From: Hormiphora californensis
Taxonomy: Eukaryota > Animalia > Ctenophora
DNA: 64,000 nt
NCBI GenBank assembly: GCA_020137815.1
Contig: CM035357.1
Span: forward strand, 3,410,001 to 3,474,000
Direction: 5' to 3'
This document shows, one piece after another, positions 1 through 64,000 of this stretch. The translations under genes were made by a program, and so were the position numbers. Each line of letters begins with the position of its first letter. Position 1 is the first letter of the stretch. Below the pieces are notes generated by a model that was given only the letters and a program-made list of their open reading frames with translations, was not told the DNA's origin and made no database searches.

Positions 1-50
1 AGCCCTAACCCTAGCCCAACCCTAAACCCAACCATAACCCTAACCCTAAC
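1..50. repeat. Degenerate telomere-like (CCCTAA)n tract, truncated by the window edge
   Basis: Sequence agccctaaccctagcccaaccctaaacccaaccataaccctaaccctaac. It is short and degenerate, so it could be interstitial. Confidence 0.6.
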
Positions 51-387
51 GTCTCATGAGACATATGTCTCATGAGACATGTCTCATGATACACTCATGA
101 GCACATGTAGGTCAAAACGTCTCATGAGCGCTCATGAGACATTCAAACAGAGATGGGATGAGACATATGTCTCATGAGCGCTCATGAGCAAGGTCTCATG
201 AGCACTCATGAGCGCTCATGATACACTCATGACACACTCATGATACACTCATGAGCGCTCATGAGACGTTGAAACACCTAAAAACGTCTCATGAGCGCTC
301 ATGATACACTCATGATACACTCATGACACACTCATGATACACTCATGAGCGCTCATGAGAGGAACGGACAGGTTCTTCCGACTTACC
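51..387. repeat. Cluster of CTCATGAG-centred palindromic short repeats, possibly one arm of a foldback element
   Basis: More than 20 copies of ctcatga(g/t/c) in 10-14 bp units such as gtctcatgagac and ctcatgatacact. Confidence 0.7.
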
Positions 388-660
388 AAAAAGTTCAGTA
401 TTTACACAGAGTTTACACAGTCTTTACTCAGTCGTTACACCCAGAGCGGTGCGTGCTGCGCACAGTGGCTTTTTCCAAGAAATTAATGGATTGTGTGCTG
501 CACAATTGACAAAATTGAGCGCCACGGCGAAAAAAGTTTCCGAAAACGCTGAAAATCGAGTGCGAAAGACGCAGTCGTTACACCCAGAGCGGCGCGGGCG
601 CTCTGGGTGTAACGACTGAGTAAAGACTGTGTAAACTTTGTGTAAATACTGAACTTTTTT
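388..660. mobile_element. Inverted-repeat (MITE-like) element
   Basis: aaaaagttcagtatttacacagagtttacacagtctttactcagtcgttacacccagagcg (388-449) is mirrored by its reverse complement at ~599-660. Confidence 0.65.
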
Positions 661-972
661 AGGGATCCCTAAACTGGGGAATTTTTCGGATATTTTTTTT
701 TTGAAAATTTGAAATTTGAGTTTTTTGTCGCGAAAAGACCCAAAACTTTGACGCGCGCGGCGCGGCGGGTAATTGCGGGTAATACGATGCGTATTGGCGC
801 CATACGTCAAGTCGCAAATGTCGTCATAGCGATTACGTCATCGGGTGGGGCGATCGCTTCGAAACTTTGGGGCTGACAAAATGAAACGCATATGTGGTCG
901 TGTGCAAAAGGAATAAGCGATTTGAGAACCTTGAATTTTGTATGCGTACACCCTAATATACTGTAATTGAAG

Positions 973-6900: not shown

Positions 6901-8573
6901 CGGGTGGCCAAATTTAATCAGGTTTCGGGTCGGCTGACGTAAAAACTCCGCGTTTTGGTCGAGGTAACCGTAAAACCATAAACCATAAAACCATAGATAT
7001 TTTTAGAGTGAAAGTTTTGAAGCCCCCTGAAGTAGTAGAGAGGTGTTCTATGGCTCGTTGGAAAGGTCTCGAGGTCCCGCGACGTATAGGGGGTGTGGCG
7101 ATGGCCATACCCAAACCTATAAGGGGTAGGACGCGAAAAACAGTCAAAATAAGGGGTATACAGAACTCGGCAATTAGAAGGAGTAGAAAGGTGTTCTAGG
7201 GTGCGTTCGAAAGCTCTCGAGGTGCTGAAGTAATTGGAATGTAAAGTCGGATTTTTTGAAACTGTCACCCCCCTGGGTATTTTCAAATTTCGTAAATGAC
7301 CATAAATCCGGTTCCTGACGAGATAGAGACTTGAAATTTGGAGGTTACGAAGATCTTGCTAAGTTCTTCCGAACCTCCAAATTTCAAGTCTCTATCTCAT
7401 CAGGAACCGGAGATATGGCAAATTTTGTTATTTCAGGGGGGTGACAGTTTCAAAAAATCCGACTTTAATTGGAAGTAATTACATGTAATTAAAATGTAAT
7501 TACATGTAATTAAAGGGTAATTACATGTAATTAAAAGGTCTAAATGACCCCAAATGACAATTCAGACATATTTTGACATATTTGGAGGCCCTGAGACCAG
7601 CGGGTGGCAAAATTTAATCCGGTTTCGGGTCGGCTGACGTAAAAACTCCGCGTTTTGGTCGAGGTAACCATAAACCATAAACCATAGATATTTTTAGAGT
7701 GAAAGTTTTGAAGCCCCCTGAAGTAGTAGAGAGGTGTTCTATGGCTCGTTGGAAAGGTCTCGAGGTCCCGCGACGTATAGGGGGTGTGGCGATGGGTGTG
7801 CCCAAACCTATAAGGGGTAGGACGCGAAAAACAGTCAAAATAAGGGGTATGCTGAACTCGGCAATTAGAAGGAGTAGAAAGGTGTTCTAGGGTGCGTTCG
7901 AAAGCTCTCGAGGTGCTGAATTAATTGGAATGTAATTGGAAGTAATTACATGTAATTAAAATGTAATTACATGTAATTAAAGGGTAATTACATGTAATTA
8001 AAAGGTCTAAATGACCCCAAATGACAATTCCGACATATTTGGAGGCCCTGAGACCAGCAAGTGGCAAAATTTAATCAGGTTTCGGGTCGGCTGACGTAAA
8101 AACTCCGCGTTTTGGTCGAGATACCAGATAAAAAAAACCATAAAACCATAGATATTTTTAGAGTGAAAGTTTTGAAGCCCCCTGAAGTCGTAGAGAGGTT
8201 TTCTATGGCTCGTTGGAAAGGTCTAGAGGTCCCGCGACGTATAGGGGGTGCGGCGATGACCGTACCCAAACCCATAAGGGGTAGGACGCGAAAAACAGTC
8301 AAAATAAGGGGTATGCAGATCTCGGCAATTAGAAGGAGTAGAAAGGTGTTCTAGGTAGCGTTCGAAAGCTCTCGAGGTGCTGAAGTAATTGGAATGTAAT
8401 TGGAAGTAATTACATGTAATTAAAGGGTAATTACATGTAATTAAAAGGTCTGCATGATCCCAAATGATAATTTAAACATATTTTGACGTATTTGGAGGCC
8501 CTGAGACCAGCGGATGGCCAAATTTAATCCGGTTTCGGGTCGGCTGACGTAAAAACTTCGCGTTTTGGTCGAG
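973..8573. repeat. Tandem array of a ~470 bp unit (15 full units plus partial units)
   Basis: Units start aaccatagatatttttagagtg near 1123, 1603, 2078, 2552, 3213, 3678, 4146, 4620, 5087, 5554, 6017, 6514, 6991, 7681 and 8145 and end ttttggtcgag. Each carries internal AATTACATGTAATT palindromes and a variable (AACCATA)n linker. Confidence 0.95.
7244..7465. mobile_element. Tc1/mariner-type MITE inserted into one satellite unit
   Basis: TIR aagtcggattttttgaaactgtcacccccctg with a TA duplication. The empty site ggaatgTAattgg is present in the other units. Confidence 0.9.
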
Positions 8574-9260
8574 TTTACCAATCCCTGTAAATATTTTCCG
8601 GTTACTTACAAGCCGATTCTTGCGAAATGTTTGGGGTTCATTAATTTCCCAATATTCACGAGCTATTCATCTACTGAATCTCTGAAGACTAGTCAGCTAG
8701 CCTTCAGAGATAGTCGAATAATTATATTATGTCAAGATAAATACGAGGATGCACCAACAATTTTAATTCTAGCATAAACTCGCCATATATGACCAAAAAA
8801 TCAGAAAATAATCGGACGGTTTATCATTTATGTCACATCTGAGCGCGATTATTGTCTTGCACGCCGTTCATCCTCCCTTTAACCGTGACCTATCAAAGTA
8901 TAGGGCAGTACATCAGTCGTTTATAGCTTCTTACTTCAGAATAATATGCGAGGCAGCTGTACAGAATAGCAGTGGTATCGGGTGATTTTACATACAATAG
9001 TTACAGTGGCTATTATGTATAAACGACATTTACTTTGACACTCTGATAGGTCACGGTAAAGTGGGAGAAATGGATGATCAAAGGCGTGCAACTCGGGGTT
9101 GAACAAAACAAATACTCCATGTCACCATTAATAATATTAGTCCAGTTAATGACAATCATGAAATCAGCATAACACAACACATCAGAATCAATAATATCAA
9201 CATTATTGACACACTCAGGATCATTTGTAAAACAAAGATCTCCCGCCAGTTTAATGTTTG

Positions 9261-10810
9261 TTAAGTTATTGAATTCCTTCTCCGTAAAGTTTGCACATTT
9301 TCATTCGTAGTAATGATACCAAAATTAGTTTCTTGGATCTCGCCTCTGGTTGGCATCATAGCAATGCAACTGGAACATTTCATATGCATCTTAATACAAT
9401 TCGATGTGTTATCGGCAACTTTACATTCCTCCTCTTTCTTGTTCACGGGTACTCCATCACCGACAATGTTTTGCCGGTGACAATTATCTACACTTATAAT
9501 ATCATTTGCTGGTTCGGGTAAGACTGGTACACCATGAACCAATGCACAGATTGATGACCAAGAATTCATAGCAGCTGCCATTTTTTCCATGGCAGGTCTA
9601 AGCACATCAAACACTTTAGTTAGTATATCACTGTACAAAAGTGGGTTTAGTACAGAGTTAATTGGTAGGATGTTGAGGGAGAAGACCTGGTACCACGGTG
9701 ACATATCCACCACCTCGGCTGTATGGAGGGCACAACAAATCAAGAAGGGTAGCCAACAACATAAGTCCGTTACACACAACCAAGTAACTTTGCGACCAAG
9801 TTTATTATTGTTGCGCCGGTCTGCCCCAGGAACTGCCGCCTTAATCGACAAGACCACAATTAAGATATGGCACACTGCAACGGTCATAAAGCAGAGAAAG
9901 TGAAGGCTGATGTAGAACCAGACAAAGACAACCTGGGGATCATTGGGGAGGACAAAAAACTTAAACGTACAAACTGGATCGTTACCGTAGAATGACACCT
10001 TTTTACCTGAAACAGTCCCATAATCCGCGGAAAACATTTCCGCGACCATTCCTTGAATTGTATTCCAGGAAATGCCAGCCTTCCTTCGAGAACGTTCAGA
10101 GTACCTTACCCCGTAGTAGCCATAGACAATCTGCAAAAATCGTGCCTTGTCCACCGTACCAAGGAAAAGTGATATATTCTTAGGAAATACAAGTCCATTG
10201 ACAAACCAATCTTCCAAAGAATCTAGTAGAGGCACTAATGCAAATGCGAGAGCAATAAGCAAAATAAACGCTAGGCATAGAATAACTTTAAGCCGAAGCT
10301 CCTCCGAAACATCGCCAGACTGTCTGTAACGAAGAGCTCGTCTTGTTCCATAAAGCCGGTAAATGCTTATACCCGCCATGGCTAAGGAGGAAACTGTCGC
10401 TCCGACCGTGTTTAGTACACCTATGATTTTACAAGTTCTCCCACTAATCCATTCTAATTGCTTAACACAGAAATCAGTGCTTTTAAAGATATGCAGGGTT
10501 GTTAAGGTGAGGAGATAGCAGGGAGTTAAGAGATCTCCAAAGGAGATTGCAAGTACGAACACATGATTCACAAAGGCTCCACTTTTATCCGGAAGTTTCT
10601 GGATAAATGTTTTCACGAAGGCTGTTAATCTCAACGGCAAACACAGTTGGCGTAACTCAGAAAGGGGACAATTTCAGTGCTCTCCAATTGCGTCGCGGCG
10701 CGGGGGGGGGGTCACTCTCTCTCTCTCTCTCCCCCTTTTCGATGGTTTCTGAACACTCACAGACACTGTGTGGTGATCTCAAATTTCTCTCTCTCTCTCT
10801 CTCTCTCTCC

Positions 10811-10871
<61 letters not shown>

Positions 10872-10901
10872 TCAATCTTTCCCTAATTGTGAGGGATGAA
10901 G

Positions 10902-10957
<56 letters not shown>

Positions 10958-11548
10958 CATACATTACTGGGCTTCCTGATAGGGGCCCTCCGCCCTGATT
11001 AAAGTAATTTATTGTCACAAGCCGTGATATCCTTATTCCTTCAAGGAATATATAAAATGGGCCTGAAATATGCAAGGAATTTCCTTGCATATTTCAGGCC
11101 CATTTTATATATAATCAATAAACCCTGTTTATATGTAGCGGGTCGCCCGCTAGGGTGATTCGCTACATCATATACTGCCCGACCTGCGAAGTAGGGAGGG
11201 TGGTATATGGTATAAGACCCGACCAAAGGGAGGGGTTTGTACTTTCTATAAGCAAGGATTTATTGATTATAAGTTTAAGCGGAAAAAAAGCTTGCTTTTT
11301 ATTATAGCAGGCGGGGTTTGTCAGACAGATTTTCACCCGCTGGAGTGCCCTTAAAGAGTCGCACTGCACTGGTGCTATATTGTCGAAATACTAAAATTAA
11401 AAAAAGACACATTTACATACGGTACTTGAATATAAAAGCTTCTCAGCCATAAACCTGACTACTCGGCCACTTGCCGGGTGTCAGTTGATGATATTCCATG
11501 TACTTATATCTGATTTGAAATGGTTGCTCTCTCTCCGTCTGTCTCCCT

Positions 11549-11618
<70 letters not shown>

Positions 11619-14600
11619 ATCTCTCTCTATCTATCTATCTATCTATCTCTCTGATTGAGAGAGTGAGAGCGGGATTGAGAGAGGGAGATTATCTATGGTT
11701 TTGTATGTCTTTGGGGATGTTATACGCCCAAAGACATACACTAATGGGGACCCCTACCCGGAAGCCGGATAATATGGTCTCGGGTGTCCTAAACCTACAG
11801 TTTTTGGACACCGGAGACTTACTATCCGGCTTCCTGATTAAAGTGGTTTATTGTCCCAAGCCGTGAATTCGGCAAAACATTTCGTTGTTTCACGACATTA
11901 TTGTACACTGTGTGTTCCTTTGCTGGGGTGCTCCGTGCTTGAGTTTCCCCTCTCTCTATCTCTTACCGCGAACCGTAGAACAGAATGAGCTTGTACGAGT
12001 TATAGATCTCTACAGCTGGAGAGTGGAGACGTGACACACGTCGACATCTCTCTCTCTCTTCCTTTCCCTCTCTCTATCTCTCTCTCTGGACCCTGGACTA
12101 TCTCTCCGTCACTCTCTTACTCTTTCAACATTTTAGCGAAGTCTCCGCATCAGCAAAAGATTCCATCTGGTAGTTTGGATGCCAAAAACACACTTCCCGG
12201 GGTGCTAGAGCCCCGAAAACCCCAGGAATCTTGAATGAGGGTAGAGAATAGTCTAGGTATGTAGTTTCATGACATAATCTTGTCAGCTTTTTTCTGGGTG
12301 AAGCCCAACGCTTGTAAAGATACAAAATGATTAATGAACACCCTGTACATGTACATACATTAACATGCTACATATTATCAACAACAACTACATTGATGGG
12401 TGAGAAGCGTTAAGGGCCAAAACCAAAATCCCCTTAGATGTATGGAATTTTTTATTTCTCCATTTTTTTCGACAATAACACCAGTGCAGCAGTGCGATAA
12501 TATCGAAGAGCAGCCAGCAAGGACGCTGCTCAGTTTCAAAAAAATATCTCAATCTTCCTTTCTCTCTGATATGTGGTCCCAAGGGAATACTGATCCCCTC
12601 TAACAAGGTTTTACTAGTAAAAGTATGTCTCTCACTTTTCTCCCCTTTGAGAAAAGAGAGAGCGATACATTAGTTTAGTACTCCCTGACTTGACGTAGGG
12701 GGCGAAAAGGAGAGATCTGTACAGTGCTGAACTGATATTTATGGTAAAGTACGCCAACTGTGTTTGCCGTCTACTTTAGTCCTATAGAAATTCCAAGGAC
12801 CCCCATAATAGATGCGATCAAGATCGTAACATAACTTTTAACTACTGTCCTACTGCAGCTGTCATTGCATTCGTCTGAAAAGTCCTTGCAGTCAGCTTTT
12901 CCATCGCATTTCTGGCTCAGAGGTAAAAACGAGGAGTTATCAGCACACTGGAAATTGTTGGCACACCCAGCATCCTCATCAGACCTGTCCCCACAGTCAT
13001 CAACCAGGTCACACACCCTCTCAAATAGAATACACTTCCGGTTTTTACACACGAACACGTTGTTATGAAACGCAGTTTTTTGTCGGAAAACTGATGTCAC
13101 AACACTTAACTCCGTGTTAAGTGAGTAAACTGCAATTGGGAGATTGTGACAGGAATTATGTAGTACCGGTCTATTCAAAGGGCATGCAGCATTTATACAT
13201 AGTCCAGTACAGCTGTGAAGGACATACGCCTCACCATAGAGGTATCTACAATCTTGCTTCCGGTCCAATGTGACAAGGGCTGTTGTTAGGTTCTTACCGA
13301 AGAATTGGTGAAATGGGTAGTTGAATTTTCGGAGTGAACACTGCTCCTTCATATGAAGGAGCACCGAGGAAAGACCTTTGTTGCATACATTTCCAACCAG
13401 ATATTCATTTCCAAATAGTTGAGCGGACGAAGGTCGGGCTAGAGCTTTATTTACATTTACCCTTCTTCTCGCGCTCTGACAAACCCCCTCGTCGCACGTA
13501 TGGGCCGAAGAACATACGATGGAAGAGTCTAGGAATTCTGAATGGTTGCCATAGCACAAGAACACGTTAGAACACGGTGCCGTGTCCACCTTAATCCTCA
13601 GAGTGGTGCCATTGCCGCACTTTTCCCAATTATCTTTCTCGTCGATGCCACTTTCACAATCTAAAACTCCATCTTGGATCCAATCCACCGGAACTCGAGA
13701 CAATTTCCCAAACCGTCTCTGACAAGTGTGAGTGGTAACTTTACCAGATCCACACCATATTTGACCCTCATCCATGCCACCTGCACAATCCTCCGTACCA
13801 TCACAAAGCTTATGCTTATGAATAAAGCAATACCGACCAACCCTGACACACTTCAACTCGATCCCATCATCACACAACTGTGGAGATTTATTGCTATCAC
13901 AGATCACATAGATGGAAATTGTGCTGCGATAACCGTTCACCAGACAGCTACCTCCTATCTTGGCCGGATCTGTGCAGTTAGTTTGGTCCATTCCAGATTG
14001 TACGCAGTAGGTAGACCTTTGAGGACTGAAAATATTTTCATTTCGACCATTGAATGTTAAGAAACATCGTGAACCGTTATACAAGGCAAATCTGCTACTG
14101 ATATGGCCGATACCATAAGATAATGCGTCACAAAGAAGTGCATCCTGATCCCAAGGAGGGGCTGTTCCTTCTTTTGGCATTCCTTGGAACGGCATAAAGA
14201 CCAGATCGTTAGAAACAGTTCCGTAGACGATTCCCCCGCCGCAATCCCGCTCCTCGACACACGTCATTTTGGAGCTTTGTGTTTCGCCAATCCAGATATC
14301 GTCACATATCCCATCGCAAACACCTCCCAATTTCAATGTGACCTCGACAATACTACCATTTTGTAGAGTGATATGATAAAACATAGTTCCTCCAGTTTTA
14401 TCGCTACACGCCTGGACGTCTTTCTGGACAAAGTTATCTTCAAAATTGTCGAAACAGACAACTCCACAAACCGGTGGCTGATCAAACATTTCAAGGAGAC
14501 TATGGTCAAAGAATTTGCCCATATATAATTGTCCACATGCCTGATAGATAGCGTCATCATTTGGGCAGAGTACAGAATAATGAGTTGTGGATATACGTTT

Positions 14601-15349
14601 TATACCGTTGTAGACTCCCTGTTTTTTATAGGTCACATTGGCCCAGTGCGAAACGTTGTTCAAGGTGTTATCAATGTGAAATCCGGTCGAAAAAAGTGCT
14701 ATAATTTTTTTCTATGAGGGTGATATTTTTAGGGTGATATTTTCCAATGCGCCACTATCACTGAGAGTTGTATATCACTGAATCATAATACTGGTCGGTG
14801 TTAGCCCTTGAAAAATTTCGCAGCGCCGGCAAGGGCCCCCAGGAGTATCTTAAATGCACATATGCATTCCGTGCATTCCAGCAGTTTTAAAGACTATCCG
14901 AGCAAGAAAAACTACTTTTGACATTATATCTACTATCTAGGAGTACATATAATGGTCGGTGTTAGCACCTGAAAAAATTTAGCAGCGCTGGCAAGCGCCA
15001 CTAGCGTATAATGATGATGATGGGGGTGAAATAAGTCATAAATTTAAGCATAAAAGTGATATCAATTAGATTGATAAATTGGCCAACATTTCGCACCGGG
15101 CACATTGGGAGCGGTGACACATTGAAAAATACTTTCACGCATCGAGAAGTACCGCTCCGTATTACAGATGTGGGCTAGAAACCCGTAATCAATGGCGATA
15201 GGACAAAGCTTCCCGTCTTCATAAGTATCAGATTGCGAAGAATTTACTCCAGATGAGTCAGTCATGGGTCCACTGTTGTCTGGAAAAGGGTCGACTGTTG
15301 CAAGAAGCACATTCAGTGTAAAGAACATTTTCCAGGTTCCTGTAGACAT
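9261..15349 (-). CDS. LDLa-repeat-containing rhodopsin-class GPCR (GRL101-related, no LRRs seen); coding segments ~15349-15062, ~14700-12775 and 10629-9261
   Basis: The first segment has a signal-peptide-like start. The 630-aa ORF has LDLa motifs (CDGTEDCAGGMDE, CDLVDDCGDRSDE, CDGKADCKDFSDEC) and the start of TM1. The 459-aa ORF has TM2-7 with GDLL, CWLPF and NPLLY. The two large ORFs are in the same frame. The first junction is uncertain. Confidence 0.85.
10630..12774 (-). mobile_element. 2.1 kb TIR element interrupting GPCR TM1; candidate spliced introner-like insertion
   Basis: Perfect 21-bp TIR ACGGCAAACACAGTTGGCGTA at 10634-10654 and 12750-12770. Minus-strand GT at 12774 and AG at 10630 lie 4 nt outside the TIRs. 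The interior has CT/GA tracts, a hairpin (~11050-11110) and a MITE fragment (~12125-12345). Confidence 0.75.
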
Positions 15350-19704: not shown

Positions 19705-22700
19705 ATGGCTAAGATAAGTGGACCTGTTTCACAATATGAGAGAGCACGGAGAGAGAAGATCAAAAGGAATAAAGCCATCGTAAGTGCTCAATGAATTTAC
19801 ACCCATTACCCTGGTTTACCAAACTGTGTCCTGGTATAGTCGGACCCCCATTTAACGGAACTCCAATTCATAGGGAGGGTAAACTTTCTCCCGAGCATCC
19901 CGGTACAAATTGGGGTCCGACTGTATCTCAAAATATATTTTACACACCTCCAAGCCTAGCAACTAGTTTTTACTCCCAATCTAATGTTTTATACCCAATA
20001 ATAATGTATTTCAGTTAGCAAGTGTCTTCCCAGACCTGGAATCAGCAAGAGCGAATGTGTGTCCATCTCTACCAATCGAACCTCCTCGCAAGAAGAAAAA
20101 GGCAAGGGTGAGTCTCGTAGACAGAACACGATTTTTTGTCTATCTGGCAGCGCCGTGCACCCGATCTGGGCGCTCTGTCCTCAGCTTGAGAATCTAGACG
20201 GGGGGGGGGGGGCAGATTATTCTAATTTCTTGTTCGACCAGCCTTCTCACTGTGTGCCACTTTTCAGAGTACGTTTGAAAGGAAGATGGTGAAAGAGACT
20301 CCGTACCAAGCCAAGGTGGTGAGAAGGAACCCCTCCCGACACGCTCGGAACACCATCGATCATGTTCCTGATGGTGAGTTAGTCTTGGTATCGAAGACAC
20401 CTCACACTCTGCACGCTGGCAAGGGGTAACCTCGTAACCAAGAGTTAGTCTACCCTATCTCTTATGCGTATGAGTATTGGCCTGGCCCTATTTGATTATC
20501 ATTTCGTTCAAATAAGGAAACAGCGGTCAGAGCATTGGCCTAATAGTGCTGCTTGCAGTCAAAATTTGGTTACGAAGTCACCCCTATTATTGCATATAGG
20601 GGTGACAATACCGCCTACCTAAAAATGACAATTTACGGGACCTTCTCATAAAAAGTTATCGAAAACTTGTCTAAAACCTATCTAAAACGTATGGTACTAG
20701 TTTGTATAGTAACCAGGACCTGAATTCTACAGAAAGTAACGACCGGTAGCGATTACACCACATGTTTAACAACAGAGGTGTGTCGCATAACTCCTTATAT
20801 GGGCATAAAATTCCAATCTTGTGGAATTTTTTCTGACTCGACTATAGCTTAGTTATCAATGAATCCACCTCTAATACCTTTGGAATGGCATTTTGCACAT
20901 TTCTGAAGGTTTTTGTAGCCAAATTCCAGCATCTTCATAGTTTTCCAAAAACAAAAAGAGTGTTAATGGCCAAAATTTCGAAAAATTCCGGTATGTAATG
21001 GTAGCTCAGACAATTTCCTCGGTATGTTCAAAAAATTAGAACTTTCTGTTTTGTAGTTTGGACACAGGAATTTTTTTCCCGCCGTACAAGCGATATTATT
21101 ACCCCTCCGTGAGCTAGCGCAGAGGGGGAATTTCATTACCAAAGTCAAAATACGGTAACGCAAAATACAGTAAGGAGACGCGCACGGTGCATAACGCGCA
21201 GCAAAAAGTTCATGTGTCAGCACGTACTAGCGCCCTGATTGGTCACGGTTGCGCGTCGTCTTACTGTATCTTCGTTTTCCATTACCGTTTTCCCACTACA
21301 AGCGACCGTGTTACAACTTTCTCTCTCTCTCCATCTTTCTTTGTTTATATCTTTCTCGGGCGTTATTTTATTGTTTGCATTAATTATAATTCACCCATGT
21401 GCTGAATAATGAATCCCCAATGATTGTATAGGTGTCGAGGTAGCACTACGGGAGAGTGGAGACCACGATGAGTTTTTTGAGACACCCATTTGTCTCTCAA
21501 CATCTACGGGCCGCTATCATGTAAGATTATATTATCATATCAGATCAGATAATCGTACAGTACCATAAATGTGAGATTGTATCCCCTCTTTTGGCTTGAA
21601 GACCCCTTACTCAACAACTTTTTGCTGGACGCACAATTTAGCGATTTGAATTTACAATTACCATGTAAATTTACAACTACTGTGTATTTTTTCAGAACAG
21701 ACCAGTGAGAGAGGTAGAAGTTGAATTCAAAACTGAGGAGGATCGAGAGAAGTGGAATGAGGATGTATCTAAACCAGCGGAGCATTTCACAGACAAAATC
21801 TATAGTGCTAATGTAGGTTTAATTCATTCCAAATACTATTGTTCCAATACTAATTCACTTTTATCAATCAGCCCATTAGTACATAATTGACACCCATTAA
21901 CCCTAATTGACACTAATTAACTCTTTACATAACCACACACAGGGTACGACATGTCACCAGTGCCGACAAAAGACACTGGACGGTAAAACCCGGTGTAAGA
22001 ATATCAACTGCCCGGGTCAGAGGGGGCAGTTTTGTAACGTTTGTCTGAAGAATAGATACGGAGAAAAGGTGCTGGATGCCCTACAGGATAAGGTATGTTA
22101 CATGTAGCGGGATGTTCCACAAACATACTGTTTATATCGCCCCATCTTTATCCCCATAGTTCTGTAACTCACTGCCCACCTGATCTGGTGCCGCCCGTCA
22201 ATGTTTACAACCTCCCCCGATCCCCGTCTGGCGTCTTGTCCAGTGTCCTCTCCTGTACCCCCCGGCCCCCCAACTTTTCCTATCCTGTAACCCCTCTCCC
22301 TCTACAGAGATGGCTGTGTCCACCATGTCGTGGTATTTGCAACTGCTCCGTCTGCAACTCCCGTCGAGGAAGACCCCCAACTGGTGTGCTTCTACCCATC
22401 GCAATGGAAAAGGGGTTTTCTTGTGTCAAGGATTATTTGGAAAGGTGAGATTCTGAAAAAGAATGTATGGGGGGGGCGTCACCTTTTTATTGCCCATAAT
22501 CCCAGCGAATTTTGGTTTTGCCCATATGGGCAAAATGGGCAAAAGTGGGCAAATTGAAATGTTCAGTGTTATATAATATGTCGTTTTTTCAAGTCTATAC
22601 CTTGATTTCATCTCTTAAAAACTCGGTCAGAATTAAAATGGTCTTAATTTGGTGTCTAATTAGAAGTCAAATTCTTTTTAGTGGTCAAATCCTAAATTTA

Positions 22701-23528
22701 GGATTTTTTAGGTTTTTTTGGCTTTAATGGGTTTTAGAAACATCCTAGAACAAAATAAATACAAGCATCTTCCTCAGCGCGAAATTCTGCTTCAATTATA
22801 GTGGCTATAAACCTATCTATGATGTAAGGTGCAGGAGTTATTTTTTGCCCATTTTTGCCCATTTTGCCCAAAGTCCCACGATTCCCCCCCCCCCCCCCCC
22901 CCCCCCCGATGTATGGGAAGTTTATTTGATGCAAATATCTGTAACATATAATATGTTGCTCAGAAGTGTTCATAGACTGTTCTGTTCAAGCCTTATCTCA
23001 ATTCTTTTTGTTGAGTTACTCAAAAAATTATTTGCAGTGTCGAACAGAAGAAAGGAAAGAAACGAAAGGCTGGAGGAGAACTTGTTGTTGAGTTTGATGA
23101 TGAGAACAAGGAAAATATCGATCCGAGGGAGCATGTAAAACAGGTACATATTTTATTCTCTGGATCAGCTGTGTAGGGCTGACGGCACCGTCCGTGGTGA
23201 TTGGTGGAGACATGTGAAGAGAGTGACCCCTGTGGTGTACTAACATGGTCCCGAGTTTTATCAGGCATAGACGACTCGAGATTTTACAAAGTTTATTCGT
23301 AAGATTAAGAAAATTGTGAATTTGTAATCGTTTTTATTGTATCGTCAGGGAAATTTAAACATTCCATCCTCTCAGGAACTACAGACTGAAGACATCAAAG
23401 TTGAACCAACGAGGGAAATAAAGGAGGAAATGTTAGAAGAGGACTGTTTCGAGAATATAGATCCTGAACTTATTGAACAAGCATTGATTGCAGTCAAACA
23501 GGAATTGAGTGAAAAGGGGATTGAGTGA
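19705..23528 (+). CDS. CDCA7: CDCA7-like zf-4CXXC_R1 zinc-finger protein, 9 coding exons
   Basis: GT-AG exons join in frame: [25 protein letters not shown] ... [50 protein letters not shown] / [16 protein letters not shown]...PTGVL...[10 protein letters not shown]. This matches the CDCA7 finger, including the CRQK, GQFC and NRYGE motifs. Confidence 0.9.
20543..21312. mobile_element. Insertion in intron 3 of CDCA7 copy 1, absent from the same intron of copy 2
   Basis: Copy 2 reads gagcattggccta-acaactttctctc with no insert. Its first ~540 bp recur at ~23571-24103. Confidence 0.7.
22472..22908. mobile_element. MULE-like MITE with a 9-bp TSD in a CDCA7 copy-1 intron
   Basis: G-run and C-run ends, inverted gggcaaaa/ttttgccc repeats, flanking atgtatggg at 22463-22471 and 22909-22917. 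Absent from copy 2. Confidence 0.7.
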
Positions 23529-24104: not shown

Positions 24105-27100
24105 CCATCTCTACCACTCGAACCTCCTCGTAAGAAGAAAAAGGCAAGGGTGAGTCTCGTAGACAGAACACGATTTTTTGTCTATCTGGCAGCGCCGTGC
24201 ACCCGATCTGGGCGCTCTGTCCTCAACTTGAGAATCTAGACGGGGGGGGGGACAGATTATTGTATAATTCTTGTTCGACCAGCCTTCTCACTGTGTGCCA
24301 CTTTTCAGAGTACGTTTGAAAGGAAGATTGTGAAAGAGACCCCGTACCAAGCCAAGGTGGTGAGAAGGAACCCCTCCCGACACGCTCGGAACACCATCGA
24401 TCATGTACCCGATGGTGAGTGAGCCTACCATATCTCTTATTGGGCATATTAGTATTGGCCTGGCCCTATTTGATTATCATTTCGTTCGAATAAGGAAACA
24501 GCGGTCAGAGCATTGGCCTAACAACTTTCTCTCCCCATCTTTCTTTGTTTATATCTTTCTCGGGCGTTATTTTATTGTTTGAATTTATTATAATTCACCC
24601 ACGTGTGCTGAATAATGAACCCCCAATGATTGTATAGGTGTCGAGGTAGCGTTACGGGAGAGTGGAGACCACGATGAGTTTTTTGAGACCCCCATTTGTC
24701 TCTCAACATCTACGGGCCGCTATCATGTAAGATCATATCATAATATCAGATCAGATAATCGTACAGTACCGATGATTATGTGAGATTGTATCCCCTCTTT
24801 TTGCTTGAAGACCCCTTACTCAACAACTTTTTGCTGGACGCAAAATTTAGCGATTTGAATTTACAATTACCATGTAAATTTACAACTACTGTGTATTTTT
24901 TTCAGAACAGACCAGTGAGAGAGGTAGAAGTTGAATTCAAAACTGAGGAGGATCGAGAGAAGTGGAATGAAGATGTATCTAAACCAGCGGAGCATTTTAC
25001 AGACAAAATCTACAGTGCTAATGTAGGTTTAATTCATTCTAAATATTTTTGTTCCACTTTTATTAATTAGTAATACATAATTGACACCCATTAACCCCGC
25101 CTAATCGACACTAATTAACTCTTTACATTACCACACAGGGTACAACATGTCACCAGTGCCGACAAAAGACACTGGACGGTAAAACCCGGTGTAAGAACAT
25201 CAACTGCCCGGGACAGAGGGGGCAGTTTTGTAACGTTTGTCTGAAGAATAGATACGGAGAAAAGGTGCTGGATGCCCTACAGGATAAGGTATGTAGCGGG
25301 ATGTTCCACAAACATACTATTTATATCCACCCACAAACGACTTACGACATCTAATATCTCCCATAGTTCTGTAACTCACTACCCACCTGATCTAAGTGCA
25401 CTGTCGTTTGGAATCAAAACGGCCAGGCAAGAAAAATCCCCTTCACCCAACTTGTTCCCCACAACTTTTCCTACCCTGTAACCTCCTCTCCCTCCACAGA
25501 GATGGCTGTGTCCACCATGTCGGGGTATTTGCAACTGCTCCCTCTGTAACCCCTCTCCCTCTACAGAGATGGCTGTGTCCACCGTGTCGGGGTATTTGCA
25601 ACTGCTCCGTCTGTAACCCCTCTCCCTCTACAGAGATGGCTGTGTCCACCGTGTCGGGGTATTTGCAACTGCTCCGTCTGTAACCCCTCTCCCTCCACAG
25701 AGATGGCTGTGTCCACCGTGTCGGGGTATTTGCAACTGCTCCGTCTGTAACCCCTCTCCCTCTACAGAGATGGCTGTGTCCACCGTGTCGGGGTATTTGC
25801 AACTGCTCCGTCTGTAACCTCCTCTCCCTCCACAGAGATGGCTGTGTCCACCGTGTCGGGGTATTTGCAACTGCTCCGTCTGTAACCTCCTCTCTCCCTC
25901 TACAGAGATGGCTGTGTCCACCGTGTCGGGGTATTTGCAACTGCTCCGTCTGTAACCCCTCTCCCTCCACAGAGATGGCTGTGTCCACCGTGTCGGGGTA
26001 TTTGCAACTGCTCCGTCTGTAACCTCTCTCTCCCTCCACAGAGATGGCTGTGTCCACCGTGTCGGGGTATTTGCAACTGCTCCCTCTGTAACCCCTCTCC
26101 CTCTACAGAGATGGCTGTGTCCACCATGTCGGGGTATTTGCAACTGCTCCGTCTGTAACCCCTCTCCCTCCACAGAGATGGCTGTGTCCACCGTGTCGGG
26201 GTATTTGCAACTGCTCCGTCTGTAACCCCTCTCCCTCTACAGAGATGGCTGTGTCCACCATGTCGGGGTATTTGCAACTGCTCCGTCTGTAACCCCTCTC
26301 TCCCTCTACAGAGATGGCTGTGTCCGCCGTGTCGGGGTATTTGCAACTGCTCCGTCTGTAACCCCTCTCTCCCTCTACAGAGATGGCTGTGTCCGCCGTG
26401 TCGGGGTATTTGCAACTGCTCCGTCTGTAACCTCCTCTCTCCCTCTACAGAGATGGCTGTGTCCACCGTGTCGGGGTATTTGCAACTGCTCCGTCTGTAA
26501 CCCCTCTCTCCCTCTACAGAGATGGCTGTGTCCACCGTGTCGGGGTATTTGCAACTGCTCCGTCTGTAACCCCTCTCCCTCTAGAGAGATGGTTGTGTCC
26601 ACCGTGTCGGGGTATTTGCAACTGCTCCGTCTGCAACCCCTCTCCCTCTACAGAGATGGCTGTGTCCACCGTGTCGGGGTATTTGCAACTGCTCCGTCTG
26701 TAACCCCTCTCTCCCTCTACAGAGATGGCTGTGTCCGCCGTGTCGGGGTATTTGCAACTGCTCCGTCTGTAACCTCCTCTCTCCCTCTACAGAGATGGCT
26801 GTGTCCACCGTGTCGGGGTATTTGCAACTGCTCCGTCTGTAACCCCTCTCTCCCTCTACAGAGATGGCTGTGTCCACCGTGTCGGGGTATTTGCAACTGC
26901 TCCGTCTGTAACCCCTCTCCCTCTAGAGAGATGGTTGTGTCCACCGTGTCGGGGTATTTGCAACTGCTCCGTCTGTAACCCCTCTCCCTCTACAGAGATG
27001 GCTGTGTCCACCATGTCGGGGTATTTGCAACTGCTCCGTCTGTAACCCCTCTCCCTCTACAGAGATGGCTGTGTCCACCGTGTCGGGGTATTTGCAACTG

Positions 27101-28168
27101 CTCCGTCTGTAACCTCCTCTCTCCCTCCACAGAGATGGCTGTGTCCACCGTGTCGGGGTATTTGCAACTGCTCCGTCTGTAACCCCTCTCCCTCTACAGA
27201 GATGGCTGTGTCCACCGTGTCGGGGTATTTGCAACTGCTCCGTCTGTAACCTCTCTCCCTCCACAGAGATGGCTGTGTCCACCGTGTCGGGGTATTTGCA
27301 ACTGCTCCGTCTGTAACCCCTCTCCCTCTACAGAGATGGCTGTGTCCACCGTGTCGGGGTATTTGTAACTGCTCCGTCTGTAACCTCTCTCCCTCCACAG
27401 AGATGGCTGTGTCCACCGTGTCGGGGTATTTGCAACTGCTCCGTCTGTAACTCCCGCCGAGGAAGACCCCCAACTGGTGTGCTTCTACCCATCGCAATGG
27501 AAAAGGGGTTTTCTTGTGTCAAGGATTATTTGGAAAGGTGAGATTCTAAAAAAGGACGCGGGAAGTTTATTTGATGCAACATATATGTTGCTCAGAAGTG
27601 TTCATAGACTGTTCTGTTCAAGCCTTATCTCAATTCTTTTTGTTGAGTTACTCAAAAAATTATTTGCAGTGTCGAACAGAAGAAAGGAAAGAAACGAAGG
27701 GCTGGAGGAGAACTTGTTGTTGAATTTGATGATGAGAACAAAGAAAATATCGATCCGAGGGGAAATGTAAAACAGGTACATATTTTATTCTCTGGATCAG
27801 CTGTGTAGGGCTGACGGCACCGTCCGTGGTGGAGACAGTGTGAAGAGAGTGACCCCTGGCCCTGTGGTGAACTCACGTGGTCCCGAGTTTTATCACTATC
27901 AGGCATAGACGACTCGAGATTTTACAAAGTTTATTTGTAAGATTAAGAAAATTGTGAATTTGTAATCGTTTTTATTATATCGTGACCTGGAAATTTAAAC
28001 ATTCCATCCTCCCAGGAACTACAGACTGAGGGCATCAAAGTTGAACCACCGAGGGAGATAAAGGAGGAAATGTTAGAAGAGGACTGTTTCGAGAATATAG
28101 ATCCTGCACTAATTGAACAAGCATTGATTGCAGTCAAACAGGAATTGAGTGAAAAGGGAATTGAGTAA
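24105..28168 (+). pseudogene. CDCA7: Second, 5'-truncated CDCA7-like copy (tandem duplicate or uncollapsed haplotype)
   Basis: Starts in the middle of exon 2 (ccatctctaccactcgaacc). Exons 3-9 are nearly identical to copy 1, with TAA at 28166-28168. No exon 1 is present. Confidence 0.75.
25476..27451 (+). repeat. 29 copies of a 67-70 bp minisatellite made of a splice acceptor plus the first 51 nt of CDCA7 exon 7
   Basis: Unit ccctctccctctacag|AGATGGCTGTGTCCACCGTGTCGGGGTATTTGCAACTGCTCCGTCTGTAAC. Copy 1 has a single instance. Confidence 0.95.
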
Positions 28169-28223
28169 AAACAATGATGATTGAATTGGACTCTATAATT
28201 TTTAATTAATTTATTCTACCAGT

Positions 28224-28332
28224 CAGGAACCGACCGACACAAGTAAACAACCAATCAGAACTCGTTATTTAGGTCACGTGACTGGTTATCAGCCAATCAG
28301 GGACCAGTATTTCCTGATTCGGTCGGTTCCTG
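28224..28332. mobile_element. 109-bp hAT-like MITE
   Basis: TIR caggaaccgaccg/cggtcggttcctg with an 8-bp TSD ctaccagt on both sides. Confidence 0.9.
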
Positions 28333-28350
28333 CTACCAGTTATGCTCATA

Positions 28351-28743
28351 CAGTCGGACCCCGATTTACCGGGATCCTCGGGGGAAGCCATTTTGCCCGG
28401 TAAATCGGGGTGCCCGGCGAAGCCGGGTGGGTAATCAAAAAGCCCTTACTTGAGGCGCACCCAATGGGTGCGCTAGTTCTGTAAAATTTTGCAAAAAAAA
28501 GTTATGAAATTTTTCAAAGGTATACCAGCCACGTTCGAATCGTGTTTCGAATCGGGGCAACTTATCACGTGTCCTGCCGCTAATTAGACGGTTCGAAACG
28601 AACCGATACGTGATCCCCATTAGACCTAGCGAATTGCAAATGCAAGTTTACCAAGCGGCCAAACTTCGAAAATTTTCCAAAAAAAATCGGGGGAAAGAAA
28701 TCCTCCCGGTAAATCGGGGTTCCGGTAAATCGGGGTCCGACTG
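28351..28743. mobile_element. TA-flanked MITE (CAGTCGGACCCCGATTTACCGG family)
   Basis: TIRs with TA flanks. Relatives at 19583-19644, 19838-19923, ~33836-33918 and 35846-38440. Confidence 0.85.
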
Positions 28744-29032
28744 TACTATTATTATTTGCAGGTTCATTTTTACACTGGCAGCAGCATTTTTATCCATTTT
28801 TAACCTTTTGCATATCAATATATCATTATATTATTTCCTATTAAAGTTATTTTGTTACAACTTCATAGATCCGACTATTTTATTTGTTCCTGGAACGGGC
28901 ATTGGATTTGAGGTGGTCATTAAAAAGGATTACCATGACATGAGGGGTGACCCAAGAATCTCTGGAAAGATCTATTTATGTCCGTGGTGGTCCATTGTAT
29001 TGGTACCAATTATACCATTGCTACATTGGAGG

Positions 29033-30518
29033 GGCAATTTCGGATTAGCCGCAAACGTTGTCTGGACCTGTTTGGCGGCGGCGCCGTCAGACCAGATCAG
29101 AGCCAGATCGAGTCGACGCCGCCAGACAGGTCTGGACGGGCTTCAACGTTCAGACGCCGTCTGACCAATCTTGATCTTAAACGCGTTTTTCCCACAACCG
29201 AGACGGGATTGAACTTCAAGCCCGTCTCAAGTTCACTTCAAATTGAAGCTGACTTGAGACGAGCAACACTATACTGATACACGGTGTTCATTTTGGATCT
29301 TTACAAGCGTTGGGCTTCACCCAGAAGAAAGTTGACAAAATTAGCTTATGAAACTTCATACTTGGACTATTCTATACCCTCATTCAAGGTTCCTGGTGTT
29401 TTCGGAGCTCTAGCATCCCGGGAAGTGTGTTTTCGGTATCAAAACTACCAGAAGGAATTTTTTTGCTTGTGCTGAGACTTTGCTAAAATGTTTTTTGGGT
29501 ATTTTCTATCTCAAACTCAAAGTTTTATGATGATTTCATGTGTTTTTCGGTCTCAGAATTTCGAAAAAAGTGGCTGGAAAGACTCTAAAATGTCAATTTT
29601 TGAGCCATTTTAGAGTCTTTTCAGCCACTTTTTTCGAAATTCTGAGACCGAAAAACACATCCAATCATCATAAAACTTTGGGTTTGACATAGAAAATACC
29701 CAAAAAACATTTTAGCATAGTCTTAGCACCAGCAAAAATTCCTTCTGGTATGTAGTTTTGATGCCAAAAACACACTTCCTGGGGTGCTAGAGCTCCGAAA
29801 ACACCAGGAACCTTGAATGAGGGTATAGAATAGTCCAAGTATGAAGTTTCATAAGCTAAGTTAGCTGCTAACTTTGCCAACTTTTTTCTGGGTGAAGCCC
29901 AACGCGTTGCAACGCTTGTAAAGATCCAAAATGAACACCCTGTACAAGTGCAGGCGTGCGTTTATACGAGTTTTGACGAAATCGGACGGAACTTCTGAAA
30001 CCAAACACTGTTTGAAAGTGAAACACGTCTCAAGAATCAAAATGTGTCGCAAATTAGAATCTCCGTCTCAAAAACACACATTCAGGCGTTCTTGAGACGA
30101 AATTTCCAATTGGCGACACGTGTTCCGTCTGATTTCGTCCAGCTCAATGCTCATCAGTCTGATTTCGACTAACTACGTCTAAACCTTGGGCACGTCGCGC
30201 CCTCTTTTTTTCGCGAACCCCTCACACAGAGGCTTCGCAGCCAAGTCTAAACCGTAAAAAACGCACGTCTACTTGTAGCCCGTCTCAACCTGTCGTCCTG
30301 TCTGGCAGTGGCGCCGCCGACCCCATCTGAACGCACGACGAGTTGAGACATGTCTCAACTCGTCTTATTCAAGCCCGTCCTGTCTGGCGGCGCCAGACCA
30401 CAATTTGATTCTAAAATTTGAGCACGCGACAGTGTGCTCAGATGGGGTCGCGGCGCCAGACAGAGCCCGTCTTGGGGGAAACCGTCTAGACAATGTTTGC
30501 GGTTAATCCGAAATTGCC
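29033..30518. mobile_element. PIF/Harbinger-like non-autonomous element containing a nested MITE
   Basis: TIR ggcaatttcggatta(g/a)ccgcaaac(g/a)ttgtct(g/a)gac at both ends. Confidence 0.7.
29280..29942. mobile_element. Tc1/mariner-type palindromic MITE
   Basis: ta-cacggtgttcattttggatctttacaagcg ... cgcttgtaaagatccaaaatgaacaccctg-ta; almost entirely self-complementary. Confidence 0.85.
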
Positions 30519-30823
30519 TTATTTTTAACCGACCGGTAGGAAACTGAATAACAATTGGCTGAGATTTGTTAAAATCAATAAACGATTACACATTGTTTTT
30601 ACATATGGAGGATACGTAAAGTTAAAGATAAAATTTTCCAACTCAAAACGTAAACGGGAAGTGAAGTATTGATACCATGACCAAATAGCCACCAAAACTT
30701 TTGGCAAAAGGACTATTTTATTTTCTCCATAATATTTAACAACAAAATATAATAATAGTTTCATAAAAAATAAGAAAAAGAGTGTCATTTAAAGAGTTCG
30801 CAAACTCGAATTAAGTTAAGTGT

Positions 30824-60403
<29,580 letters not shown>

Positions 60404-60464
60404 ATCGCTGCAACCTAGAGTGAAATGATTTATGAAGGAGCAGTTGTTGCTATGTGTAACTAGG

Positions 60465-61993: not shown

Positions 61994-63851
61994 ATGAAAC
62001 AGAAGTACCAGACCCTAGAGGAAAACACCCCAATTCTCCCTGGACCCGGGACATGCTCCCTGACCCCTGAAGCCATCAGGACCGCAGTGGCTGTCACCAT
62101 GGGAGGGTTCCTATTTGGTTATGATATTGGGGTAATGAGTGGAGCTCTGGTCAAGTTGTCTGAGGACACAGCCGGGGACTCAGCCTGGGGTCTAGATGAT
62201 AACCCTTTTAGGTAGGTAGCATGGGGTCTAGATGATAACCCTTTTAGGTAGATAGCATGGGGTCTAGATGATAACCCTTTTAGGTAGGTAGCATGTGGTC
62301 TAGATGATAACCCTTTTAGGTAGGTAGCATGGGGTCTAGATGATAACCCTTTTAGGTAGGTAGCATGGGGTCTAGATGATAACCCTTTTAGGTAGGTAGC
62401 ATGGGGTCTAGATGATAACCCTTTTAGGTAGGTAGCATGGGGTCTAGATGATAACCCTTTTAGGTAGCTGATGTAGTTGATTGTCTAAAACTAAACTAAT
62501 GTCTCCTTTTTATTACGGACTAGCGCACCCATTGGGTGCGCCTCAAGTAAGGGCTTTTTGATAACCCACCCGGCTTCGCCGGGTGGTTCTTTTCACCCCT
62601 TTCAACGTCAATAACACGGTTGCCATGGCAACTGAATTAGTAACTATGGGGACTGGCATGTTAAAAGTCATTCGAAAATATTAACCAACTTCCACTGGAA
62701 GTTCCAAAAGTGTGAATGACAGCTTTACAGCTTTGGGCACATAAAGTGTTTTATGAAGGAGCACTGTCGCGTAGAAACGCACTGAACGAACGGCCACTTC
62801 GACGACGTTCATCTCCAAATTCCATTGTTTTCCATACTCATTCGTCCGATTTACAGTCTCCTAACTAGCTATAAGTTGCAACTAACTACTAAGTTGCAAC
62901 TCGACATTTTCAGACAGGAAGTTGTAGTGTCTGCCACGATTATATTCGCTGCCATTGGATCCCTGCTCAGTGCACCGCTGAACAGGTCGTTAGGACGGAA
63001 ACCAGTCTTGTTGGGAGGGGCCCTGTTGTTTTCACTGTGCGGGGGTGTTATGGGTACCAGTTGGAACTGGTGGGTGCTAACATGCGGGAGAGCAATGGCA
63101 GGAATTGCAATAGGTCTCCTGTCGATGACAGCCCCACTTCTCATATCTGAACAGGTACTTAGTAACCATGGCAACCATACAGGTAACCATGGTAACACAC
63201 TTCTCATATCTGAAGACTGAACAGGTACTTAGTAACCATGGTATATCTGAACAGGTACTTTAGATTAGTGTAACCATGGTGGTAACCATGGTAACCATGG
63301 TAACCACTAACCATGGTAACATCTATATCTCCCTCCCACTTATAGATGGCTACAGAGTGGCGTGGTCCTGTCAACGTTGCAAATCAACTGATGATCACTG
63401 TAGGCATCCTGGTAGCTAGCATTGTAGCGGGAGGATTCTCTACAACTCCAGATGGGTAATATGTGCGATAAAGGAAAAAAGGCAAGGTCTACTCAGACCA
63501 AATATTTAGGAATGAAGTCTAAGTTCGAAAGTCTCGTCAAACGGATATAGATGTGTGTATCATACTGTTTCATATGGTAACCATGGTAACTCAGGTAACC
63601 ACAAGCCATGGTAACCATGGTAACCCAACTCTCTCTATTCCCTAGTTGGAGGTACATGTTGGGTTTATCTAGTGTCCCTGCTATTCTCATGGTGATGCTC
63701 GTGTGGTCCATCTCGGAGAGTGTTAGGTGGCTGGCACACAGTGGCAAACTGGGGGAGGCCAAGGCAGTGCTTCGGAAACTCAGGGATGACGATGTGGAGC
63801 TGGAGTGGGAGATGATCTTGGATGATATTGGGAACTGTAGTCAGGACGCAG
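61994..63851 (+). CDS. SLC2A13: MFS sugar porter, proton/myo-inositol cotransporter-like (5' part; gene continues past the window)
   Basis: Exons 61994-62211, ~62914-63154, ~63347-63455 and ~63646-63851 encode GGFLFGYDIGVMSGAL, QEVVVSATI, LGRKPVLL, GRAMAGIAIG, WRYMLGLSSVPA and ESVRWL. Confidence 0.85.
62186..62466 (+). repeat. Eight copies of a 36-bp exon-end/donor unit
   Basis: TGGGGTCTAGATGATAACCCTTTTAG|gtaggtagca repeated eight times. Confidence 0.95.
62519..62820 (-). mobile_element. Dispersed repeat fragment with a CCCGGCGAAGCCGGG hairpin (Helentron-like)
   Basis: Reverse complement of ~37870-38166; the same hairpin occurs at ~28413. Confidence 0.65.
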
Positions 63852-64000
63852 GTTCGTGATATTGGGAACTGTAGTCAGGACGCAGGTTCGTGATATTGGG
63901 AACTGTAGTCAGGACGCAGGTTTGTGATATTGGGAACTGTAGTCAGGACGCAGGTTCGTGATATTGGAAACTGTAGTCAGGACGCAGGTTCGTGATATTG
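63824..64000 (+). repeat. At least five copies of a 34-bp exon-end/donor unit, running off the window
   Basis: GATATTGGGAACTGTAGTCAGGACGCAG|gttcgt repeated. Confidence 0.95.

Follow-up and report, generated by a model that had tools for sequence, protein, structure and literature searches.

A 64,000-nucleotide stretch of the genome of the ctenophore Hormiphora californensis (GenBank assembly GCA_020137815.1, contig CM035357.1, positions 3,410,001 to 3,474,000 of the forward strand; called the window here, with positions counted from its first letter) contains many short duplicates of exon ends, which lie in the introns next to the working exons of a vinculin-like gene, a CDCA7-like gene and a sugar transporter gene. 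Most differences of these copies from the working exons are at silent sites, a pattern which is real and can be explained without new machinery: the copies are in all likelihood untranslated, and their silent differences probably represent standing allelic variation, probably captured or shuffled by unequal exchange between homologues. The exchange between homologues as the cause, and its direction, are what we infer from the data presented below.

Silent Differences between Junction Copies and Working Exons

The copies were collected by an automatic search of all 109 modelled junction sides, to which those at 54467, 40861 and 41026 were added by eye, and the copy ends were afterwards curated by hand. 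The resulting inventory (Table 1) comprises 66 copies in only 16 families, five of them without any difference from the working exon. An AG or GT is retained at the matching place in 64 copies, the exceptions being those at 31453 (AT) and 63217 (TG). Head-to-tail arrays are found in the CDCA7-like gene (28 units), at 55 kb (seven) and in the transporter (seven, and at least four units), seven families consist of one copy each, and others include spaced copies not arranged head-to-tail. Several copies have only 3-6 intron letters in common with the working junction. Within the gene spans, short duplications arranged locally form 37 families, and 16 of these reach one of the 107 junctions, compared to 7.0 expected from random placement outside exon interiors (P = 4e-4), a null which ignores the junctions of a nested gene and any survival difference; a shuffled-sequence control yielded no short local duplications.

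The other eleven families show 25 distinct differences between copy and exon, 18 silent and seven replacements, and third codon positions hold 18 of the 25. As calculated from the actual codons, over transition weights of 1-4 and with a fivefold CpG weight, dead copies should show a silent share of 0.23-0.30 (P = 3e-7 to 1.4e-5), which rises to 0.35-0.43 if the working exon is allowed to drift at silent sites as well (P = 2e-4 to 3.5e-3). CpG or transition bias as the only cause is rejected by these weighted nulls; the observed/expected CpG ratio of the window is 0.74. The bias is retained in the range covered by an earlier model-made note on this DNA (silent:replacement 17:6), without the CDCA7 array (13:6), and when the four silent calls closest to breakpoints are removed (14:7); of the P values of these tallies against the two-lineage null, the weakest is 0.026. 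Per copy, the mean synonymous divergence (dS) is 0.113 and the mean nonsynonymous divergence (dN) 0.0095. A two-lineage clock calibrated on the dN of the copies predicts a dS of only about 0.02 instead of 0.11, so the remaining dS must predate the death of the copy.

The earlier note had claimed that the copies differ mostly at synonymous sites, which is borne out by the full set of families, and nearly all of its examples were recovered. In the CDCA7 array (25476-27451), CCG>CCA occurs in four units, CCA>CCG in three, CTG>TTG in two, and TGC>TGT and TGT>TGC in one each, together with the replacement GTC>CTC in two units. The copy at 41108 differs from the exon at 41238 by CCC>CCT, GAA>GAG and GCT>GCG within 68 nt, that at 50950 by CTC>CTT and CTT>CTC within 32 nt, and that at 54030 by GGT>GGA within 34 nt, while the copies at 56845 and 56913 share the replacement GAG>GGG. 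Only TTA/TTG in the 55 kb array has to be withdrawn, since it marks a breakpoint at which the copy re-enters the intron tail, whose letters supply the G. Further silent differences were found in 56329-56405 (three), at 54467 and 63987 (one each) and at 31453/31482 (two), and further replacements at 31453, 31482, 40861/41026, 40890 and 62319. The note had also expected dead intronic copies to mutate evenly over codon positions, a null that omits silent change and polymorphism of the working exon and was amended accordingly by the two-lineage calculation.

Some candidate differences were not counted: GAC/GAT, where the 56384 copy ends, consists of intron-derived letters, and GCC/GCA (62 kb array) and CTG/CTC (59380) sit at breakpoints. 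Also left out of the tally were a weak 12-nt match at 41197 (one silent, one replacement difference) and a copy at 56346, which contains an inserted base and the same GGG and GAC as the 56384 copy and is in frame, with a stop in the fourth codon. As a separate observation, five of the 25 differences are no more than two bases away from the junction: in each of the phase-1 glycine acceptors at 56307, 54432 and 53952 (reverse strand), the second base of the exon is not that of the copy, and the donor copies at 31482 and 56926/56862 differ at -1 or -2. Changes at acceptor base 2 and donor -1/-2 would alter splice-site strength.

The simplest alternative is that the copies are ordinary old duplicates, decaying everywhere while the working exon drifts silently, and that small counts and transition or CpG bias do the rest. 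Only 25 events are available, this null already predicts 35-43% silent differences, and the harshest trimming leaves P values of only about 0.02-0.03. However, the full tally deviates clearly from it even with transition and CpG weighting, dS/dN is about 12 instead of the expected value of about 2, and the presence of the copies is polymorphic (see below), hence they are not old and fixed. Taken together, this makes an origin as ordinary old duplicates unlikely.

Junction Copies in Other Haplotypes

Contigs of four out of seven runs were compared with the window, namely X1 (sample S1), X5 and X6 (both sample S2) and X7. The comparison covered 55760-60420 (41 of 218 letter rows and 15 of 20 joints listed) and 40990-41430 (three rows). 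More than two arrangements occur in sample S2, possibly a pool. Among the rows listed, 27 of 28 coding single-nucleotide polymorphisms are silent, and the 17 silent ones of X1 over 350-418 silent sites correspond to a silent diversity of at least 4-5%.

The haplotypes differ in the number of junction copies. The numbering of the vinculin exons used here still counts a dropped candidate (see below), so that exons 10, 12 and 30 are those at 57010-57116, 56141-56307 and 41238-41356, respectively. For exon 12, haplotypes are present with no copy (X6, joint 56317>56390), with one copy (X5, 56336>56395) or with a repeated one (X6, 56395>56357, back 38 letters). Exon-10 copies are skipped in X5 (56819>56993 and 56910>56993) and X6 (56819>56883), affecting one or both copies. 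Haplotypes with a single junction thus exist for both exons, carrying either only the junction of the copy (exon 10 in X1 and X6) or no copy (exon 10 in X5, exon 12 in X6).

In addition, variants of the copies recur in working exons. Contigs of X1 and X6 track the 56926 copy through its variant base and then enter the exon at 57012. By arithmetic, a 328-letter record of X6 contains the whole 107-nt exon ending with GGG, followed by the donor and flank of the copy; the working exon-10 donor of the window is missing there, leaving the 56926 copy as the only donor. The Glu/Gly replacement (GAG/GGG) is therefore a working allele, at a site where both relatives, Bolinopsis and Mnemiopsis, have Ala. 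Similarly, the variant CCG>CCC of the exon-12 copy at 56300 is present in the working exon in X1 (34.5 of 59.7), X5 and X6. The earlier note had suggested testing whether copy variants match synonymous polymorphisms of the functional exon. A match with a working allele is seen for the silent CCC (56300) and for the replacement GGG (57011); 56306 and 56294 have no corresponding row among those listed. The note's suggestion that the copies are templated from functional alleles by unequal exchange or gene conversion is upheld in substance by the variable copy number, by a copy serving as the working donor of another haplotype and by a silent variant occurring as a working allele, whereas "repeatedly" is not required, because one capture or crossing-over after the duplication suffices. 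To say that the copies are "storing" variants would imply a function without evidence, and none is implied here.

These contigs also bear on a possible artefact of assembly or polishing, in which a merger of two haplotypes put alleles one behind the other, or polishing drew on different individuals, so that they pass for copy and exon. A probable one-base error in the exon at 42939-43157, several sites at which the only X1 contig compared differs from the window and the allele-level divergence of two neighbouring CDCA7-like paralogs could be taken as hints of this. Yet the X1 contig 40990-41279 shows no differences and holds the copy together with the end of exon 30, with two variant pairs in cis, which excludes an assembly error as the source of the tandem order at this place; another X1 contig (56664-56895) includes the second exon-10 copy, and one X5 contig carries both the 59380 and 59626 copies. 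An artefact is therefore hardly credible as the general explanation.

A further indication comes from the CDCA7-like genes A and B, which differ from each other by 25 silent and eight replacement differences in 903 nt (dS 0.10-0.13, dN 0.012), i.e., by the same figures as copies and exons. Within the 51-nt exon head of B that is repeated in the array, A differs at three sites, and two of its variants (CCA, TGC) are among the six variants of the array (P = 0.004-0.017 compared to random changes). This match to the neighbouring paralog, which adds to the evidence for templating, would fit variants shared via old alleles or short exchanges, without proving it. As observed separately, gene B is without exon 1 and half of exon 2 and begins right after a piece of a mobile element which is also present in the third intron of A. 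The pair could represent a large duplicate from unequal exchange, a gene borrowing the first exons of A, or two haplotypes assembled in tandem.

Origin of the Silent Differences

The proposed course of events starts with a short duplication spanning a splice junction, as found here, after which the copy nearest to the exon body would work on, while the spares fall into the intron, where nearly all of them are closed by stops or frameshifts. Such a duplication should be tolerated because the copy adjoining the exon body keeps working, as is described for the F7 IVS7 repeat in the accessible part of PMC1557585. Since working alleles of the vinculin-like gene differ almost only at silent sites in the rows listed, at high density, and since a spare copy on one haplotype can correspond to the working exon end on another, as seen at two junctions, copy and working end on the same chromosome may often derive from different alleles. 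Either the duplication would have joined two alleles out of register, or a later crossing-over or contraction would have swapped the working end. Both lineages would then have been under purifying selection as exon until recently and would differ as two alleles do, the few replacements being amino-acid polymorphisms such as GAG/GGG or decay since the death of the copy. The few intron letters in common at several copies are expected if intron alleles are far apart.

Several points weigh against this reading. In the few-copy families, 11 silent differences occur in 67 silent sites (0.165), which has a P value of 0.01 at an allelic diversity of 5% and of 0.20 at 10%; the dS between copy and exon (0.11-0.165) thus exceeds the lower bound of silent diversity (0.04-0.05), and about 10% would be needed. 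Silent changes also make up a smaller share in the copies (18:7) than in the alleles (27:1; Fisher P = 0.02). For exon 12, GGG (56306) and GAC (56294) have no working-allele row among the 41 of 218 listed, and the three variant sites of exon 30, where contigs break, are not among the three rows listed for 40990-41430; the high depth of X5 and X6 contigs on the copy there was not counted as evidence. The X1 contig over 41294 matches the window, and only the ends of X1 records (two ending at 41279, one starting at 41250) suggest a polymorphism at 41249, the GCT/GCG site. Sample S1 may be the source of the window itself, and the haplotype comparison is confined to 55760-60420 and 40990-41430, outside of which lie the copies at 50950, 54030, 54467 and 31453, both the 55 kb and the CDCA7 array, and those of the transporter. 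The GGG haplotype may also have arisen later, by contraction of the duplicated one. As to the CDCA7 array, its match to paralog A has a P value of only 0.05-0.14 once the variants are taken as silent, no array unit has the third variant of A (CGT, six bases from CCA), and CCG>CCA in the array is a CpG transition. The needed diversity appears plausible for this animal, given that the accessible part of PMC8527503 reports an overall heterozygosity of 3.2% for a ctenophore genome (2% single-nucleotide, with higher values measured in exons) and many indels in non-coding DNA, with indel-rich introns.

The main rival of the allelic origin shades into it: the copies may be long-lived and under indirect purifying selection, because contraction and conversion bring them into working position often enough for replacements to be purged, while silent changes accumulate in both lineages. 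A haplotype using the 56926 copy as donor does exist, the copies at 59380, 59626 and part of that at 41108 are common to both samples and hence not all young, and the minority variants within the arrays comprise six silent and two replacement changes (P = 0.003-0.01 against the dead-copy null). Such selection would also account for a dS above the measured allelic floor. However, it requires exchange rates above the reciprocal of the effective population size, which should also wipe out silent differences until only about the allelic level is left; seven replacements persist; and it overlaps with the allelic origin, differing only in where the filtering occurs. Long persistence of this kind is accordingly regarded as rather unlikely.

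A more far-reaching version of the allelic origin is put forward tentatively, as a conjecture that may well prove wrong. Intron alleles in this genome may no longer align, leaving the exons as islands of homology, and recombination or repair starting in an exon would slip at its edge and duplicate the exon end of the other allele. Junction duplicates would then be a standing by-product of meiosis, swapping into and out of the working position and remaining under indirect purifying selection without ever being translated, and would constitute a main route of intron growth. Both the enrichment at junctions and the few common intron letters would be expected if slippage occurs where homology between the alleles ends.

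Translation of the Copies

The earlier note had also considered that the copies are sometimes translated, in which case they would be spliced in occasionally, as alternative splice sites or mutually exclusive mini-exons, and kept by selection on the protein. Nearly all copies retain their AG or GT, and some human genes do use pseudo-sites, according to the accessible part of PMC1557585. Three copies are open, namely the 9-nt acceptor copies at 40861 and 41026, which stay in frame and add 33 and 198 nt, respectively, and the one at 63217, which is without GT. Against this, 63 of the 66 copies give a frameshift or stop if used as alternative splice sites, every copy bearing silent differences is closed, and the two in-frame open ones each carry a replacement instead. 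The proteins of the two relatives, Bolinopsis and Mnemiopsis, contain no repeats at the copy-bearing junctions. Moreover, mutually exclusive exons are each complete, in frame and provided with both splice sites, whereas a copy comprises 8-68 nt from one end of an exon with a single splice site. Translation of the copies is therefore very improbable, and this part of the claim is dropped.

Genes and Other Features of the Window

Exon models were built from reading frame and splice signals for the vinculin-like gene, the CDCA7-like genes A and B and the sugar transporter. The CDCA7-like genes match Pfam zf-4CXXC_R1 (E = 9e-17). Five of seven vinculin-like exons tried gave weak Pfam Vinculin matches, and the nearest named relatives of one exon are a vinculin-like protein of Bolinopsis microptera (82%) and a protein of Mnemiopsis leidyi (79%). 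Of 1453 residues, 1026 of the spliced model are identical in Bolinopsis vinculin-like P0001 and 1018 in the Mnemiopsis leidyi protein. Four vinculin exon joins (2/3, 3/4, 4/5 and 13/14) are confirmed by contigs of a run guessed to be RNA, which derives from a relative or population diverged by about 10% and checks joins, not which copy gets used. The candidate vinculin exon at 57543-57602 was dropped, as it is absent from both relatives and has repeat-level depth.

Table 1. Genes, working exons and junction copies in the window, with the differences of the copies from their exons.
Feature	Position	Strand	Remarks
CDCA7-like gene A (zf-4CXXC_R1)	19705..23528	+	9 exons, without array
Gene A exon with CCA and TGC, two of the array's variants	22308-22444	+	
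CDCA7-like gene B	24105..28168	+	begins mid exon 2
28 tandem copies (67-70 nt), intron tail and 51-nt head of B exon	25476..27400	+	5 silent, 1 replacement variant; none open
Working exon of gene B, last acceptor of array	27401..27537	+	sole frame-keeping reading
Vinculin-like gene	30823..60403	-	36 coding exons
Two donor copies of exon 31514-31602	31453..31498	-	2 silent, 2 replacement
Five acceptor copies (8-9 exon nt) of exon 40738-40828	40853..41029	-	2 replacement; two copies in-frame, open
68-nt copy, 3' end of exon 41238-41356 and donor	41105..41175	-	3 silent, 0 replacement
Working exon (exon 30)	41238..41356	-	GCT/GCG site at 41249
32-nt donor copy of exon 51001-51091	50950..50987	-	2 silent
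10-nt acceptor copy of exon 53530-53627	53680..53691	-	identical
34-nt acceptor copy of exon 53840-53952, after unrelated intron tail	54029..54065	-	GGT>GGA
Acceptor copy (9 exon nt) of exon 54265-54432	54459..54495	-	GGC>GGG
Array, 7 acceptor copies of exon 54971-55127	55128..55761	-	36 exon nt identical; one copy cut at 25
Two acceptor copies of exon 56141-56307	56329..56405	-	GGC>GGG, CCG>CCC, GAT>GAC
Two donor copies of exon 57010-57116	56845..56940	-	GAG>GGG in both
16-nt acceptor copy of exon 59240-59337	59365..59383	-	identical
14-nt donor copy of exon 59655-59793	59621..59639	-	identical
Sugar transporter	from 61994	+	Sugar_tr E 5e-15
7 donor copies (36 nt) of transporter exon 61994-62211	62212..62467	+	one TGG>TGT replacement
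Three partial donor copies of transporter exon 62914-63154	63198..63260	+	identical
At least 4 donor copies (34 nt) of transporter exon 63646-63851	63852..64000	+	one GGG>GGA; continues past window end

Some further features of the vinculin-like gene were observed (all on its reverse strand unless stated otherwise). The conserved exon at 42939-43157 contains a one-base frameshift relative to both relatives, which is probably an assembly error. Three 34-nt intron-tail copies ending in AG, without exon letters, precede the exon 32214-32348 (at 32349-32445), and this exon is mostly missing from the proteins of the relatives. One intron holds long proline- and glutamate-rich open frames of 217 and 156 codons (43892-45580), which are broken by frameshifts and absent from the proteins of both relatives; they may represent a nested gene or a large alternative exon with errors. 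A gene coding for a signal peptide-bearing protein is nested on the forward strand (34544-39900) in the vinculin intron 33357-39959, and one of its introns contains three repeats of about 430-450 bp (36566-37887); junction copies of at least 18 nt were looked for in this gene, and none were seen. Outside of these genes, telomere-like CCCTAA units followed by a 468-474-bp satellite occupy 3-8580, so the window is probably subtelomeric, and exchange rates there may be above the genome average. Two long open frames of 470 and 646 codons on the reverse strand (9264-14711) encode cysteine-rich repeats and a part resembling membrane proteins; a local repeat scan found no junction copies in them.

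Implications and Comparison with Known Systems

If the allelic origin holds genome-wide, non-coding copies with dN/dS values near 0.1 would be explicable without translation, which calls for caution where a low dN/dS is taken to prove that an exon is used alternatively. Every copy would then document, with a date, both a second allele and an unequal exchange, and one haploid assembly would suffice to learn about the allelic diversity of a highly variable animal and about the sites of recombination slippage. It is predicted that copy variants equal working alleles and that exon-edge duplicates accumulate with rising heterozygosity.

Repeats spanning a splice junction are a known class. The human F7 IVS7 37-bp variable number tandem repeat is a minisatellite whose first unit spans the exon-intron boundary, and 6-16, CBS IVS13, lamin B2 and PDGF are further examples (PMC1557585). 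As far as the accessible part of this source goes, the copies described here resemble the F7 IVS7 type in that the unit consists of an exon end and a splice signal repeated into the intron, with polymorphic copy number. The authentic site is used there and the pseudo-sites are mostly silent, and the reading frames allow only the exon-adjacent site here in 63 of 66 cases. In contrast to F7 IVS7, both donors and acceptors are affected, at about one in seven junction sides over three genes, many copies are single with little intron homology, and the units hold 9-68 coding letters instead of four, so codon-level differences are readable. The accessible part of PMC1557585 is silent on silent differences and on an allelic origin of the units.

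A second likeness is to intron gain by tandem genomic duplication, as far as described in the accessible part of PMC3443670, which also involves a short tandem duplication at splice signals and leaves the coding sequence intact. There, however, an exonic AGGT is duplicated and a new intron is made, whereas here an existing junction is duplicated and the existing intron grows. The copies in the window sit inside introns and repeat the existing junction, instead of forming a new intron of duplicated exon sequence between two AGGT sites. A literature search, outside of which lay most subscription journals and supplements, listed no publication dealing with silent differences of junction copies from their exons.

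Unequal crossing-over between alleles is known to produce tandem copies which at first are as divergent as the two alleles, predominantly at silent sites where they are coding, and which later undergo exchange or conversion. It is usually described for whole genes or exons, whereas the units here are exon ends of 10-70 nt, one of which cannot be expressed. Silent copies passing variants into an adjoining expressed sequence are familiar from chicken immunoglobulin pseudogenes and antigenic-variation cassettes. Those donors supply amino-acid diversity via a programmed pathway; here, most differences are silent (18 of 25), the hosts are housekeeping genes (vinculin, CDCA7-like, sugar transporter), and nothing suggests a programme. 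What is new compared to all these systems is the allelic evidence, namely the observation in other haplotypes that a common pool of alleles supplies both the copy and the end of the working exon.

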